Assembly: GCA_963737905.1 (NCBI GenBank) | Contig: CAVTUQ010000010.1 | Location: forward strand, 1 to 64,000 | DNA length: 64,000 bases | Source of the DNA: an uncultured delta proteobacterium | Lineage (GTDB): Bacteria > Desulfobacterota > Binatia > UBA9968 | Reading direction: 5' to 3' | Part shown: in pieces, positions 5,186 through 57,112 of the stretch | How the letters are laid out: the number at the start of each line of letters is the position of its first letter | How positions within the stretch are numbered: the first letter of the stretch is position 1 | Made by a program: the position numbers and the translations under genes | The notes under the pieces: generated by a model | The model's database searches: none | The model's input: only the letters and a program-made list of their open reading frames with translations | Told to the model about the DNA's origin: nothing

Positions 5186-5223
5186 GTTCAAGTCGTTCAA
5201 AACGTTCCAGTCGTTTCAATCGT
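5186..5223. repeat. GTTCAA 9-mer tandem repeat
   Basis: gttcaagtc gttcaaaac gttccagtc gtttcaatc. Confidence 0.7.
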
Positions 5224-10152: not shown

Positions 10153-10225
10153 GTTTCAAGTTCAAATCGTTCAAGTAGTTCAACCGCTGCGCTCCGTTCA
10201 AACGGTTTGAACCATTGGAACGAAC
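10153..10225. repeat. GTTCAA/TTGAAC 9-mer inverted tandem repeat
   Basis: gttcaaatc gttcaagta gttcaaccg...gttcaaacggtttgaaccattggaac. Confidence 0.75.
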
Positions 10226-16626: not shown

Positions 16627-16880
16627 AGCTGATTTCCCCTGAGGATCGCCAAGTAATCAGGAAAGCTCAGACCAAGCGTCGCCGCGAGCGGTCCGAGCAA
16701 CAACGAGTGCACGCCCATCTCGTATAGACGTCGGAAGTCTGTCTCCAAAAGGGCGAGTTGCTCCTCTTCGCTGAGCCGGTATTCGGCGATCAGAGTTTCT
16801 CGCTCGCCAAGAAACCGGTCGAACATCTTCGGTTCACGGTTGACGTGGAAGAGAAGCTTCTGAACTTCGTAAAGACTCAT
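16623..16880 (-). CDS. LigA-like small subunit of extradiol dioxygenase
   Basis: MSLYEVQKLLF...LSEEEQLALL..D...LYEMGVHSLLL; 4-bp overlap with the LigB-type gene. Confidence 0.8.
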   Translation of the reverse strand: MSLYEVQKLLFHVNREPKMFDRFLGERETLIAEYRLSEEEQLALLETDFRRLYEMGVHSLLLGPLAATLGLSFPDYLAILRGNQL

Positions 16881-16886
16881 ACCTGT

Positions 16887-16952
16887 GTTTCAAGTTCAAA
16901 TCGTTCAAGCCGTTCAATCGCTTCGCTCCGTTCAATCCCCCTCCTTTATCCT
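16887..16952. repeat. Left half of the composite palindromic repeat split by the IS110 insertion
   Basis: GTTCAA 9-mers followed by cccctcctttatcct; continues at 18474. Confidence 0.85.
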
Positions 16953-16964
16953 TATATTAACATC

Positions 16965-17180
16965 ATTGCAGATTGACATAGAGGAGATCATGTTTATGTG
17001 ACACCGATTTCAAGAGCTTGCTGGTTGAGGACCACCTTTATCCTATCCCTTATTCGAGGATCTGGGAGAGACTGTCCCGGCCAGTAAGAGAACGGAGCTA
17101 GAGGTTCAATAGAAAGTAGTCCCCTTTTGGAGGACCGATATAAGGCTAACTTTCCGTTCAGAGCTATTGGGATTGGAATT
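16965..17180 (+). ncRNA. Predicted IS110 bridge RNA (target-binding and donor-binding loops)
   Basis: Guides at 17035-17044 (target left + core), 17064-17070, 17109-17117 (donor left) and 17138-17144 (reverse complement of core + donor right) lie in two internal loops; RNA ends are approximate. Confidence 0.88.
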
Positions 17181-17203
17181 ACATAACGGAGGAGTAACAG
17201 ACA

Positions 17204-18430
17204 GTGAAACGATACTACATAGGAGTGGATTGGGGCGACCGCTTGCATCAGGTGTACGTCGGCGATGAGGAGGGGAAGAAGGTAAGAGAGATGAAAGTGC
17301 CAGAGAGCCCGGAGGGGTTGGCCGAGATCGGGCGCTGGCTCGACGAGCGAAGAGCCGAGGGGCTTGAGCTGTGGGCGGCCATTGAGAAGCCGGCGGGGCG
17401 GATTGTGGACTTTCTGCTCGATCACGGGGTGGAGGTTTACCCGGTCAATCCCAAGGCGCTGGATCGAGTGCGGGATCGTTATCGAATGAGCGACTCGAAG
17501 AGCGATGCGTTTGATGCCTATGTGTTGGCGGAGTTTCTGAGAACCGATCAGGCGCACTTGAGAGTGCTTCGACCGAGCTCTGAGAAAGCCCAAGAGCTTA
17601 AAATCCTGAGTCGGGATCAGCGCCGAGTGGGGCGCCAGAAAACGCGGTTGCTCAATCAGCTCACCACCACGCTCAAAGAGTATTATGCTCGGCCCCTGGA
17701 GGCCTTTGAGGACCTGGAGACTGAGATCGCCCTGGATTTTCTCAAACAGTATCCGACCCCGGCTCACCTCAGTGCACTTAAACGTAAAGAGTTCAATCGC
17801 TTTGCCACCACCCAACATCATCTCAGTAAACAGCGCTGTGAGGAGTTGTGGAAAAAGCTTAACCAACCGCAACTTGCGGTGCCCGAACATGTGGTCAGAG
17901 CCAAGGCACAGCTGGTTGAGGTCCTCATCGAGCAGCTTCGGGCTTCGATCAAAGCGGTGAAGATCTATAACCACAAGGTCGAGAGTTTTTTCGCCTCTAG
18001 CCCGGCCGCTCAGTTTGCTAAGACGCTGCCGGGCGCAAAAAGCGGAACCCTGGTGGCGGCGATCTCGGCCGAACTCGGCGATGCCCAGGGTCGCTGGGAA
18101 TCCTCTCGCCATCTTCAAGCCGAAGCGGGAGCGGTACCGGTGACCAAAGCCAGTGGCAAGAGTCATGTCGTACATTTTCGTTTTGCCTGTAACAAGCATC
18201 TGCGCCACGCGATGTACTGGTTTTCCTTTGTCTCGCTCAACCACAGTGAGTGGGCTAAGCTCTACTACCGGGGACAGAGGGATAAAGGTCATAGCCATCA
18301 CCAAGCGTTGCGCGCCCTGGGAGCCAAGTGGCTCAAGATTATCTTTGTGATGTGGCGAGACCATAAGCCTTACGATGAAAATTTCCACCTGGCCAACATC
18401 GCTCGTCAGAAGATGCGTCAGGCGGCGTGA
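17204..18430 (+). CDS. IS110 family recombinase/transposase (DEDD RuvC-like + Tnp domain)
   Basis: YIGVDWG, AIEKP, KSDAFDA acidic tetrad; AGAVPVTKASGKS serine motif; RBS ggaggag before GTG. Confidence 0.95.
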   Translation: MKRYYIGVDWGDRLHQVYVGDEEGKKVREMKVPESPEGLAEIGRWLDERRAEGLELWAAIEKPAGRIVDFLLDHGVEVYPVNPKALDRVRDRYRMSDSKSDAFDAYVLAEFLRTDQAHLRVLRPSSEKAQELKILSRDQRRVGRQKTRLLNQLTTTLKEYYARPLEAFEDLETEIALDFLKQYPTPAHLSALKRKEFNRFATTQHHLSKQRCEELWKKLNQPQLAVPEHVVRAKAQLVEVLIEQLRASIKAVKIYNHKVESFFASSPAAQFAKTLPGAKSGTLVAAISAELGDAQGRWESSRHLQAEAGAVPVTKASGKSHVVHFRFACNKHLRHAMYWFSFVSLNHSEWAKLYYRGQRDKGHSHHQALRALGAKWLKIIFVMWRDHKPYDENFHLANIARQKMRQAA

Positions 18431-18450
18431 AATATTTTTTAAAAAAGGGC

Positions 18451-18456
18451 TTGACA
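18451..18456 (+). promoter_or_regulatory. -35 box (TTGACA) of the IS110 circle-junction promoter
   Basis: In the circular form it lies exactly 17 nt upstream of TATATT (16953-16958). Confidence 0.85.
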
Positions 18457-18473
18457 AGTTTCATAGAAAGTCT

Positions 18474-18544
18474 CCCCCGCGTCCGCTCGCGTCCGCGGGG
18501 GAGGAAAGAGGTGGGGGATGGAACGGCTTGAACGTCTTGAACGG
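18474..18544. repeat. Right half of the composite palindromic repeat split by IS110
   Basis: cccccgcgtccgctcgcgtccgcgggggaggaaagaggtggggg then TTGAAC 9-mers. Confidence 0.85.
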
Positions 18545-18564
18545 CCATGTTTGACACAGCCCCG

Positions 18565-19563
18565 CTAGCGATAGAGCTGCTCGATCCAGTTCTCCTTAAC
18601 CAACCTCTCCAGAGGAACAGGATCGCGAAAATAATCCGGCCGATTCATCATCTCCTTGGGCACCGGGCTGCTTTCGGCAAGCTCTTCCAAAACCGCCTTG
18701 ATCCCGCCATCCGTTACCGTTGGCAGGCGCTTGAAAAGGTCCGCATAGACCTGAACGGTTCTCTTGGCGATCTCAGGATCTGGTTGCCGGAGCCACTTAT
18801 TAAAAACTTTCTCGGTGAACGAACGGTCTTTCTTTATGAGGTGAATTGCCTCGACGTAGGCTCTGAGAAAGCGGTCAACGACTCTCGGGCTTTCTTTGAT
18901 GAAGACCCGGCTGCTGACCACGCAAGACGCCGGGTAAACGAAATCGGTCTTCGTCAGATCGAGCAGAACCGGCCATCCTTTTTGCAAATAGGGAAGGGCG
19001 AGATTGAACGGCAAAGCCGCGGCGTCAATCTGTCCCGCCTCCAGTGCCCCGGAGAAATCCAATCCGAGCTGCAGGACTTTGACATCCTTTGGATCCAGCC
19101 CGGCATACCGCAGCGCCGCGCGCAAATAAAAATGCGTGGTCGACCCTAGCCGCGTCACCGCCGCTGTCTTGCCTTTTAGCTCGGCGGCGTTTTTCATTCC
19201 CGGTCGCGCGATCAGGTAAACCGCATCGGCATCGACAGGACAAGCCAACAGAGCGACGTCGCCGCCTTTGAGTCGTGCCGCCACGACCGAAGCGGCCCCC
19301 GCCCCCGAAAAATTCAGCTCCCCGCTCACCACCCCCATCGTGATCAAGGTCCCGCTCTGGATGAAGATGACTTCAACGTTAGTCAGGCCATGCTTCGAGA
19401 ACAAACGCGCATCTTGGGCAACCCATACCGGAAGGTTCATAATGCTGTTGGTTGTCCCGTAGCGAAGGAGCTGCGTCTCCTGGGCAAACGCGAAACTTGA
19501 CAGCGCTCCCATGCAACAACCGAGCACCAATAACCGAAGACCAGATCCGCTGACCATAGTCAT
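18565..19563 (-). CDS. NitT/TauT family ABC substrate-binding protein
   Basis: LPVWVAQDARLFSKHGL, ELKGKTAAVTRLGS. Confidence 0.9.
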   Translation of the reverse strand: MTMVSGSGLRLLVLGCCMGALSSFAFAQETQLLRYGTTNSIMNLPVWVAQDARLFSKHGLTNVEVIFIQSGTLITMGVVSGELNFSGAGAASVVAARLKGGDVALLACPVDADAVYLIARPGMKNAAELKGKTAAVTRLGSTTHFYLRAALRYAGLDPKDVKVLQLGLDFSGALEAGQIDAAALPFNLALPYLQKGWPVLLDLTKTDFVYPASCVVSSRVFIKESPRVVDRFLRAYVEAIHLIKKDRSFTEKVFNKWLRQPDPEIAKRTVQVYADLFKRLPTVTDGGIKAVLEELAESSPVPKEMMNRPDYFRDPVPLERLVKENWIEQLYR

Positions 19564-20036
19564 CGCTCGCTCGAAAAGACCTTGCGCTCCACTGCTTCCT
19601 GATCGTAGGGAACAAACTGATTCTCACCGGGGCCCCGCAGCCTTGGTGTCTCTCCCTCATCGAAGAGACCGGCGGCGCCTTTGATGATGTCTCCGCCGAC
19701 CAATGGTGGGGAATGGGATTCGACAACCACTGCATCTGACTGAGAACGATTCCATGCCCAATGGACTTTGTTCGCGGGAATGCGATGAAAATCTCCCTTC
19801 TTGCACAGGTAGCCTTCGTCCTCGACGAAGAACCAGATCTCGCCATCCAGGACGTGATTGATCTGTTCCGAGACATGCATATGGGGTTTAGTGTGGTAGC
19901 CCGGAGGCCGGGTGGCCATCATGAGGCTGCTTTCGTTGCCGTAGGCCTGCTTCACGACCATCGAGCCTTGTCCCTGGTCCGCGCTCAACACGACTTTTTT
20001 CACCGGAACGTTTTCTGCTTTTACACGCAGCGCCAT
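19560..20036 (-). CDS. Cupin domain protein
   Basis: GYHTKPHMHVSEQ...RIPANKVHW; ATG 20036. Confidence 0.85.
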   Translation of the reverse strand: MALRVKAENVPVKKVVLSADQGQGSMVVKQAYGNESSLMMATRPPGYHTKPHMHVSEQINHVLDGEIWFFVEDEGYLCKKGDFHRIPANKVHWAWNRSQSDAVVVESHSPPLVGGDIIKGAAGLFDEGETPRLRGPGENQFVPYDQEAVERKVFSSER

Positions 20037-20065
20037 AAAACCACCATCCTTCCGAAATTGCTTTG

Positions 20066-20105
20066 CCCTCGCCCCAGCCCTCTCCCACTGGGAGAGGGTG
20101 AGGGT
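20066..20105. repeat. REP-like palindrome CCCTCTCCC-n-GGGAGAGGG
   Basis: ccctcgccccagccctctcccactgggagagggtgagggt. Confidence 0.8.
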
Positions 20106-20115
20106 GCGTAAGTTC

Positions 20116-27646: not shown

Positions 27647-27738
27647 CGCTAGCCTGGATTATTCACTGGCGAACAACGATCAACGGGCGAGCCCTCCGGA
27701 TCGAAGGCAATGGGCCTCTACGTATCAGAGTTCCATCC

Positions 27739-27801
27739 GTTCAAATAGTTTAAATCGTTCCAAACGTTTTGAGCGGCTTGAACAGCTTGAACGTTTTGAA
27801 C
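27739..27801. repeat. GTTCAA/TTGAAC 9-mer inverted tandem repeat
   Basis: gttcaaata gtttaaatc gttccaaac ... ttgaacagc ttgaacgtt ttgaac. Confidence 0.75.
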
Positions 27802-38452: not shown

Positions 38453-38546
38453 GTTCAAATCGTTCAAACGGTTCAAGCCGTTCAAAGCGCGCAGAAGCTC
38501 CGCCGAAGGCGGATCAGCCTCTGGCTGAGATTGAACAGCTTGAACG
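38453..38546. repeat. GTTCAA/TTGAAC 9-mer inverted tandem repeat with an internal hairpin
   Basis: gttcaaatc gttcaaacg gttcaagcc gttcaaag ... tccgccgaaggcgga ... ttgaacagcttgaac. Confidence 0.75.
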
Positions 38547-46642: not shown

Positions 46643-46665
46643 GGCGGGTCATGCAACTCTGCCTG

Positions 46666-46704
46666 TTCAAATCGTTCAAAACGTTCAAGCCGTTCAAGTA
46701 GTTC
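46666..46704. repeat. GTTCAA 9-mer tandem repeat
   Basis: gttcaaatc gttcaaaac gttcaagcc gttcaagta gttca. Confidence 0.8.
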
Positions 46705-56985: not shown

Positions 56986-57112
56986 TGTTCAAAACGTTCA
57001 AGTCGTTCAAGTTGTTCAAAACGTTTTCGGAGGTTCAAGTCGTTGGAAGGTTCAATTCGTTTATATCGTTTTAAACGTCTTGAACTTTTTGAACGATTGG
57101 AACGACTGGAAC
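56986..57112. repeat. Long GTTCAA/TTGAAC 9-mer inverted tandem array
   Basis: gttcaaaac gttcaagtc gttcaagtt gttcaaaac ... ttgaacttt ttgaacgat tggaacgac tggaac. Confidence 0.8.

Follow-up and report, generated by a model that had tools for sequence, protein, structure and literature searches.

The locus described here raises the question of what placed an insertion sequence (IS) of the IS110 family within one arm of a palindromic repeat, and of whether the choice of that site can be read from the element itself. The window, i.e., the whole stretch of DNA that was analysed, comprises positions 1 to 64,000 (64,000 nucleotides, forward strand) of contig CAVTUQ010000010.1 in GenBank assembly GCA_963737905.1, from an uncultured delta proteobacterium (Desulfobacterota; Binatia; UBA9968). 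The element is an ordinary IS110-type element with its own guide RNA, its site within a small hairpin between two genes (in one of the arms) is the one predicted from that guide, and all IS110-family features that could be tested here were found in it. Its protein domains, ends, RNA fold, guide-flank matches with their covariation, and junction promoter, together with the uninterrupted copies of its target repeat, were computed here. It is very probable that the insertion was RNA-guided and took place at the CT of a hairpin resembling a repetitive extragenic palindrome (REP), with a bridge RNA from the left end of the element and a cycle like that of IS621. The element and the parts of its target are as follows.

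16894-16935, plus strand: left array of four 9-bp GTTCAA/GTTCCA units, the outer part of the composite repeat (read directly; arrays of the motif were counted genome-wide).
16936-16952, plus strand: left arm of the target hairpin, consisting of the left target and the left CT core at 16951-16952 (10-base match to the left guide; colinear with uninterrupted repeats in relatives).
16953-18473, plus strand: IS110-family insertion sequence, 1,521 bp including the right-hand CT (ends common to full-length relatives with 73-93% DNA identity).
17204-18430, plus strand: recombinase gene, 408 aa, GTG start (Pfam, NCBIfam, and PDB alignment).
18472-18473, plus strand: right copy of the CT core (direct reading).
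18474-18517, plus strand: remainder of the target hairpin, made up of its right arm and of the upper stem and loop, which are intact (reading and DNA fold).
18519-18542, minus strand: right-hand array, opposite in orientation to the left one, with three TTGAAC units (direct reading).

The element is flanked by the dinucleotide CT at both ends (16951-16952 on the left and 18472-18473 on the right), as read directly from the window. The left junction reads CTCCTTTATC (16941-16950), CT, and TATATT (16953-16958), and the right junction reads ATAGAAAGT (18463-18471), CT, and CCCCCGCG (18474-18481). The termini are not inverted copies of each other, as judged by direct reading. Between the junctions, the sole long open reading frame (ORF) is that of 17204-18430 on the plus strand, which encodes 408 aa. 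Residues 6-161 matched PF01548 (DEDD_Tnp_IS110) at 114.2 bits against a cut-off of 29 (E 6.4e-33), and the C-terminal domain with the conserved serine, PF02371 (Transposase_20), was matched at 41.7 bits against a cut-off of 21.3. The NCBIfam model NF033542, "IS110 family RNA-guided transposase", gave 153.2 bits and its cut-off of 140 was passed. The nearest solved structures in the PDB comparison were only distantly alike, with E values of 1.5e-8 for the ISCro4 recombinase and 1.2e-5 for the IS621 recombinase. In the PDB alignment, D9, D101, D104, and S317 aligned with conserved ISCro4 residues, S317 falling opposite the SG serine of ISCro4. By the pattern known for the IS110 family, the catalytic residues of the recombinase are probably D9, E61, D101, D104, and S317. 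An initial annotation of this stretch had placed an IS110 element at a CT core in one arm of a palindrome; the junctions, the matches to PF01548, PF02371, and NF033542, and the guide match described below bear this out, and the junction strings that it gave were confirmed by direct reading.

The target was then rebuilt by computational removal of 16953-18473, that is, the element and one CT. The rebuilt 64-nt site folded into one long imperfect hairpin at -25.8 kcal/mol (DNA parameters), compared with -11.8 +/- 2.0 kcal/mol for 200 shuffles, none of which (0/200) folded as well. Fifteen regions from related genomes were picked for a side-by-side match of both window flanks. In 12 of them, e.g., L042, the composite repeat was uninterrupted and in the same orientation as the rebuilt site, and in the other three it was flipped or had an insert. 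Its order is GTTCAA 9-mers, a C-rich arm ending in CCTTCATCCT, a CCCCCGCG stem with a loop of 2-4 bases, an arm reading GGAAAGAGGTGGGGG, and TTGAAC 9-mers. The CT used by the element is that of ATCCT-CCCCC in the uninterrupted copies, so that the boundaries and the rebuilt site are sound. The 9-mers said earlier to bracket the hairpin are present: GTTCAA/GTTCCA is repeated four times at 16894-16935, and TTGAAC three times at 18519-18542. The matching inverted arrays on both flanks would also be expected if the hairpin halves and the GTTCAA arrays were parts of a larger composite mobile unit and not a pre-existing target. This is highly improbable and already near refuted, since the repeat occurs uninterrupted and without the IS in related genomes and at C9:178232 of the own genome, relatives of the IS that share its ends are surrounded by quite different sequences, and the orthologous spacer of G002, a genome of the same genus, has the arrays and no IS.

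What reads the target was sought in the left end of the element. The 251-base left end folded alone at -68.1 kcal/mol (z -2.9). The consensus fold of the window and 16 related left ends had two stem-loops, each with a large internal loop, and 34 pairs, five of which were compensatory; the most variable columns of the alignment were both sides of the first internal loop. In IS621, left guides are described as having the sense of the left target or donor and right guides as the complement of the core together with the right target or donor (PMC11208160). The target and donor guides of the window were assigned by these rules, as follows.

17018-17159, plus strand: bridge RNA, structured core, folding as two stem-loops that both have a large internal loop (consensus fold, 17 sequences).
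17034-17044, plus strand: left target guide ACCTTTATCCT, in the sense of the left flank and core (8/8 non-core positions and the CT match).
17062-17070, plus strand: right target guide CTGGGAGAG, in the complementary sense to the core and right flank (core and 4/5 of the first right-target bases match).
17109-17117, plus strand: left donor guide ATAGAAAGT, identical to the 9 right-end bases that directly precede the core (string identity; it varies little across the family).
17138-17144, plus strand: right donor guide ATATAAG, reverse-complementary to the core and the first 5 left-end bases (string comparison).

The left target guide repeats the left flank and core across 10 consecutive bases, and the donor guides match the conserved ends of the clade. 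The first internal loop would be the target loop, reading the target, and the second the donor loop, reading the joined ends of the element. The two arms of the hairpin are consistently unlike (TTCATCC versus TCTTTCC). The opposite arm, CCTCTTTCCT when read on the minus strand, agrees with the guide at all but 2 of 10 positions, so the mismatch claimed for it in the initial annotation holds. The GGAAAGAGG arm lay downstream in all five distinct insertions of this hairpin type (window, L003, L009, L023, and L025; L039 has the same junction as L023 and the two were counted once), and IS621 is described as tolerating double mismatches poorly (PMC11208160). These observations fit the arm- and orientation-specific targeting, predicted from the left guide, that had been proposed earlier.

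The flank comparison was made in related genomes, since the own genome has a single copy. A scan of a genome collection gave 28 loci encoding relatives, mostly in assemblies labelled Binatia or Deltaproteobacteria, and further ones were obtained by searching the genome of the window together with 40 related ones (41 in all). The left end TATATTA was found at 16 of the 18 related loci having a left end and the right-end motif followed by CT at 24 of 25, the exception being L018; CTTGACA was also kept in the related right ends. The flanks vary widely among relatives, and the predicted guides vary along with them. The covariation set consisted of 17 elements, duplicates having been removed before the count (L031 of L002, L032 of L004, L033 of L008, and L036 of L007). 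Also excluded were L008 and L016, with no usable left flank, L006 and L016, with no right flank, and L018, with no recognisable target loop. The counts of G006 and G012 were unused and no claim depends on either genome; L033 comes from G006. Left guides matched their cognate flanks at a mean of 6.5 of 8 non-core positions, compared with 4.0 for 265 non-cognate pairs, each scored at the best of three registers, which raises the non-cognate scores too. Right guides matched at a mean of 4.7 of 5, compared with 2.2 for 242 non-cognate pairs. When flanks were shuffled among elements, 0 of 10,000 shuffles reached the observed sum, on the left and right alike, although this test overstates independence because the elements are kin. 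The initial annotation had looked to other copies in the same genome for the flanks; the own genome has none to offer, and the table of flanks came from relatives, where guides follow flanks. Differing ends, or flanks with no relation to this repeat, had been named as what would speak against the proposal; the ends proved conserved, and where flanks differ, the guides that pair with them differ as well.

The right-guide register was set by L002 and L004 (9/9) and by L010, L011, and L012 (7/7), and it is fixed across the clade, unlike the left. The core faces left-guide positions 9-10 in L013 and L035, positions 10-11 in the window, L009, L011, and L015, and lies beyond position 10 in L010, L012, and L017. 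At L003:1799-3316, the usual hairpin is on the right, and the left flank is of another hairpin type with a 3/8 fit to the element's own left guide; such hybrid flanks would be expected from recombination between two copies or from an IS-mediated rearrangement. L018:2277-3762 (89% DNA identity) has lost the first ~24 left-end bases and the last ~8 right-end bases, and its left target guide has a 2-base deletion. Because its termini are lost while the donor guides for normal ends remain, L018 is probably a decayed, immobilised copy. Copies were also found in assemblies labelled Verrucomicrobiia, Udaeobacter, Enterobacteriaceae, Gemmatimonadales, and Sulfotelmatobacter (L003, L004, L006, L015, L016, L017, and L025), with 61-97% protein identity (for L025 over 29 residues only). 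Since L003 and L025 share the hairpin flank of Binatia-type genomes, wrong contig binning is as likely an explanation for these copies as transfer between phyla.

The ends of the element also carry the two halves of a promoter, which come together when the right end is joined to the left end computationally.

18451-18456, plus strand: TTGACA in the right end, which supplies the -35 half of the circle-junction promoter (computed join; CTTGACA is kept in related right ends).
16953-16958, plus strand: TATATT, the -10 half of the circle-junction promoter (computed right-end/left-end join).

In the joined sequence, the two hexamers are separated by 17 bases and form a near-consensus promoter, whereas no promoter-like site was found in the integrated stretch 16800-18620. 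As predicted from the sequence, the junction promoter would exist on the excised circle only. A promoter across joined ends is the arrangement described for IS110 circles (PMC11208160). By analogy with IS621, we infer circle formation, expression, and catalysis for the present element. The element would be excised as a circle, and joining of its right and left ends would create a strong promoter from which the bridge RNA and then the recombinase are transcribed. The complex of the two would pair the circle junction with a matching chromosomal site, and strands would be exchanged at the CT. In this way, RNA-guided recombination would have placed 16953-18473 at the CT in the 5' arm of the G+C-rich, REP-like hairpin between inverted arrays of GTTCAA 9-mers.

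For joins and circles in public data, 4 runs (X1-X4) of 20 were searched as assembled contigs only; since contigs show presence and never absence, the outcome counts neither way. No join across the element at CT and no circle junction was found in the contigs of the four runs. The single joint listed (16917 to 18521, with 30 other letters between) belongs to another GTTCAA repeat and is not an empty site. In one X1 contig, the right end occurs a second time, in diverged form, and the loop of the hairpin there is shorter by 8 bases.

Several observations weigh against guided insertion at this hairpin, besides the kinship of the elements in the shuffle test. The left-guide register shifts by one base either way among clade members, and the cognate left fits of L003 (3/8) and L014 (4/8) are poor. 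A permissive Rfam scan of 16800-18600 found no bridge-RNA family; its sole match was a chance one of mir-969 to the hairpin (22.3 bits against a gathering score of 61, E 0.29). The orthologous spacer of G002 (on C225; 86 bp, both flanking genes kept) has GTTCAA arrays, a different centre, and no hairpin. The orthologous locus thus offers no true empty site, and the rebuilding holds by analogy with paralogous repeats only. The earlier claim that the empty site can be rebuilt exactly is accordingly supported by the hairpin fold and by the colinear repeats of related genomes, and remains an analogy as regards the locus itself. In the whole-element search, the full-length element was found in its own genome at a single place, that of the window (the assembly has 46 contigs and is 87% complete), and with one copy in such an assembly, any activity in this host is putative. 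The right guide predicts CT-CTCCC and the actual site is CT-CCCCC, with one A-C mismatch.

The mismatch lies at the second base after the core, where CTGGGAGAG calls for T and the window site has C, giving 4/5, so that the window copy occupies a near-cognate site. It is possible, if somewhat improbable, that the element landed off target here, its guides being tuned to another hairpin class, ACCTTTATC-CT-CTCCC of the CCCTCACC / GGGAGAGG type, and that the window represents a one-mismatch event and not a regular harbour. The right guide of the window is that of L002 and L017, whose flanks match the core and all 5 following bases, and a hairpin perfect for both window guides exists in the related genome G011 (L063), while the own genome has no second site of either form; IS621 is described as preferring perfect matches and tolerating some single mismatches (PMC11208160). 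However, the right guide of L003 predicts the same core and 5 bases and yet L003 sits in a CT-CCCCC hairpin, so the combination recurs. L023 and L025, 95-96% identical to the window element over the recovered right-end DNA, are also in a CT-CCCCC hairpin, and the left guide fits the arm of the window hairpin exactly.

The single copy, the integrated state with no promoter-like site, and the lack of joins across the element in the contigs of the four runs (which show presence only) would likewise suit a stranded relic, i.e., a single past insertion that is immobile in this lineage and whose flank fit is a historical footprint. This is unlikely, as the ORF is intact and passes the family cut-offs, both ends, the four guide stretches, and both promoter halves are intact, and copies 93-95% identical are found at other loci in related genomes. 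The truly decayed relative L018, with both termini lost, looks different.

The initial annotation had suggested that the element uses an abundant intergenic repeat as a safe harbour, and neither half of this was upheld. No other site in the 6.7-Mb assembly matched the 15-mer exactly, whether the ambiguous base was taken as C or as T. At two mismatches or fewer, 21 sites were found compared with 17 for the reversed control, and the 21 include both the opposite arm and the guide's own sequence. Searching the own genome with a profile made from 11 hairpins without an interruption gave eight loci at E <= 0.01, including that of the window; past E 0.01, the search gave a loose tail of other G+C-rich hairpins. 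The 15-mer is commoner in some relatives (at two mismatches or fewer, 41 against 11 for the control in G001 and 109 against 31 in G010). Two 15-mer matches in more distant genomes, L064 and L065, were set aside as not being hairpins. The targeted hairpin sub-type is rare in this genome. Abundance holds for the GTTCAA arrays only, with 214 arrays compared with none for the reversed motif, and these are a separate outer module that the guide does not read. As for safety, the site lies 72 bp upstream of the start of the ligA-ligB operon, and a "safe" insertion is an assumption.

Compared with known systems, the element is like IS621 of Escherichia coli in its DEDD and Ser recombinase domains and its CT core, in a left-end non-coding RNA with target and donor loops and the same senses of left and right guides, and in a promoter rebuilt across the circle junction and a target that is a palindromic intergenic repeat (as described in PMC11208160). 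The parallel with IS621 at REPs drawn in the initial annotation is in line with this, as is the different repeat family that it had also stated. Unlike IS621, the protein is distant (E 1.2e-5 to 8wt6 over the C-terminal part; 408 aa compared with a 328-residue chain), the right guide reads the core and at least 5 bases, compared with the four-base right guide described for IS621 (PMC11208160), and the left donor guide is unpaired with the core in every clade member here. ISPpu10 and ISPpu9 of Pseudomonas putida are similar in that they are reported to use one defined position of a REP-type stem-loop and in that a G+C-rich hairpin adjoins the guide-paired bases (10.64898/2026.03.19.712850, PMC12288879). 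In ISPpu10, the stem-loop is described as a 5' extension involving the left target; here, in contrast, the core is in the 5' arm, the right target forms the stem, and the loop is downstream. P. putida is described as having many identical targets, whereas the occupied site is the only one in this genome.

The repeat itself resembles REPs and bacterial interspersed mosaic elements (BIMEs), which are described as short imperfect palindromes, mostly intergenic and in mosaics with other repeat modules (PMC2817692). The window copy is an imperfect palindrome able to form a hairpin and is intergenic. Unlike REPs, which usually have >100 copies per genome, this hairpin is found at the eight profile loci, a copy number below that REP threshold. 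The abundant module here is a 9-bp tandem array and not a palindrome, and no Y1 transposase gene was found beside the repeats in the four cases examined, both unlike REP/BIME. The genome has five Y1_Tnp matches, and the four examined had no arrays or such hairpins within 700 bases (incomplete assembly). Y1 transposases of the REP-associated tyrosine transposase (RAYT) type were dropped as makers of the repeat, as no repeats lie beside these four of the five matches.

IS110 insertion at one position of a REP-type palindrome has long been known, and bridge RNAs, the junction promoter, and guide rules have been published (PMC11208160, 10.64898/2026.03.19.712850). What is new here is an IS110 member in an uncultured soil lineage with a longer right guide, a left donor guide unpaired with the core, and a different target repeat. 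A literature search found no paper joining Binatia or Binatota with IS110 or REP among the 10 of 42 matches listed, and none with the three repeat strings; the supplementary natural-target tables of PMC11208160 may list the clade. With this case, an uncultured soil lineage joins those in which the bridge-RNA guides of IS110 elements are legible directly from the genome, and the 17 elements form a natural series in which guide and target change together. The extended right guide and the shifting left register could inform design rules for bridge recombinases.

Three further ideas go beyond the guided insertion itself, and it is doubtful that they hold jointly, namely natural retargeting, structure-assisted capture by the right guide, and the GTTCAA mosaic as an undescribed repeat class of this bacterial family. 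In retargeting, target loops for different sub-families of REP-like hairpins would be swapped on near-identical scaffolds, with even a single T/C difference following the local variant of the repeat. The guide and site of the window both read CCTTTATCC, and the repeat consensus and the guides of L003 and L009 read CCTTCATCC. As to capture, the right guide reads the core and at least 5 bases, and its sequence is the same as the 3' arm of the hairpin itself. Because of this identity, the guide may invade the opened or extruded hairpin, which would be a right-target-side variant of the "dual-match" logic reported for ISPpu10.

The GTTCAA arrays are a less expected feature of this genome. Across the whole genome, the 214 arrays of at least three GTTCAA/GTTCCA units (3-6) lie at 166 loci. 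Thirty of the arrays make convergent pairs with variable centres. Their location is mostly intergenic, and 134 of the 214 are wholly outside a crude ORF mask covering 86% of the genome. Further arrays in the window are at 5186-5209, 10160-10201, 27730-27801, 38453-38485, 46665-46697, and 56987-57112. Among the 41 genomes searched, the repeat stretch of the window matched same-family genomes only.

The element is located downstream of a gene for an NMT1-like binding protein and upstream of a minus-strand operon of ligA, ligB, and a flavin adenine dinucleotide (FAD) hydroxylase gene, the site lying between ligA and the binding-protein gene. This is an aromatic ring-cleavage operon, and the element, 72 bp upstream of it, may affect its expression, a modest point for the genome. 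Five other IS110 DEDD-domain matches were found in the genome (on C25, C37, C33, C26, and C19). Those at C25:71071-71508 (minus strand) and C37:85153-85590 (plus strand) are copies of another IS110, 99.5% identical over 1,536 bases. The flanks of these two copies, the ends of which could not be fixed, showed no shared target; the C25 copy is between two G+C-rich hairpins and the C37 copy is not. At 19860-20110 of the window, short ORFs translate to GEG-rich strings, e.g., PLPLGEGEG. Such translations would be expected from hairpin repeats of the CCCTCTCCC / GGGAGAGGG class, present elsewhere in the genome, and going by the translations, another repeat of this class may lie at 19860-20110.

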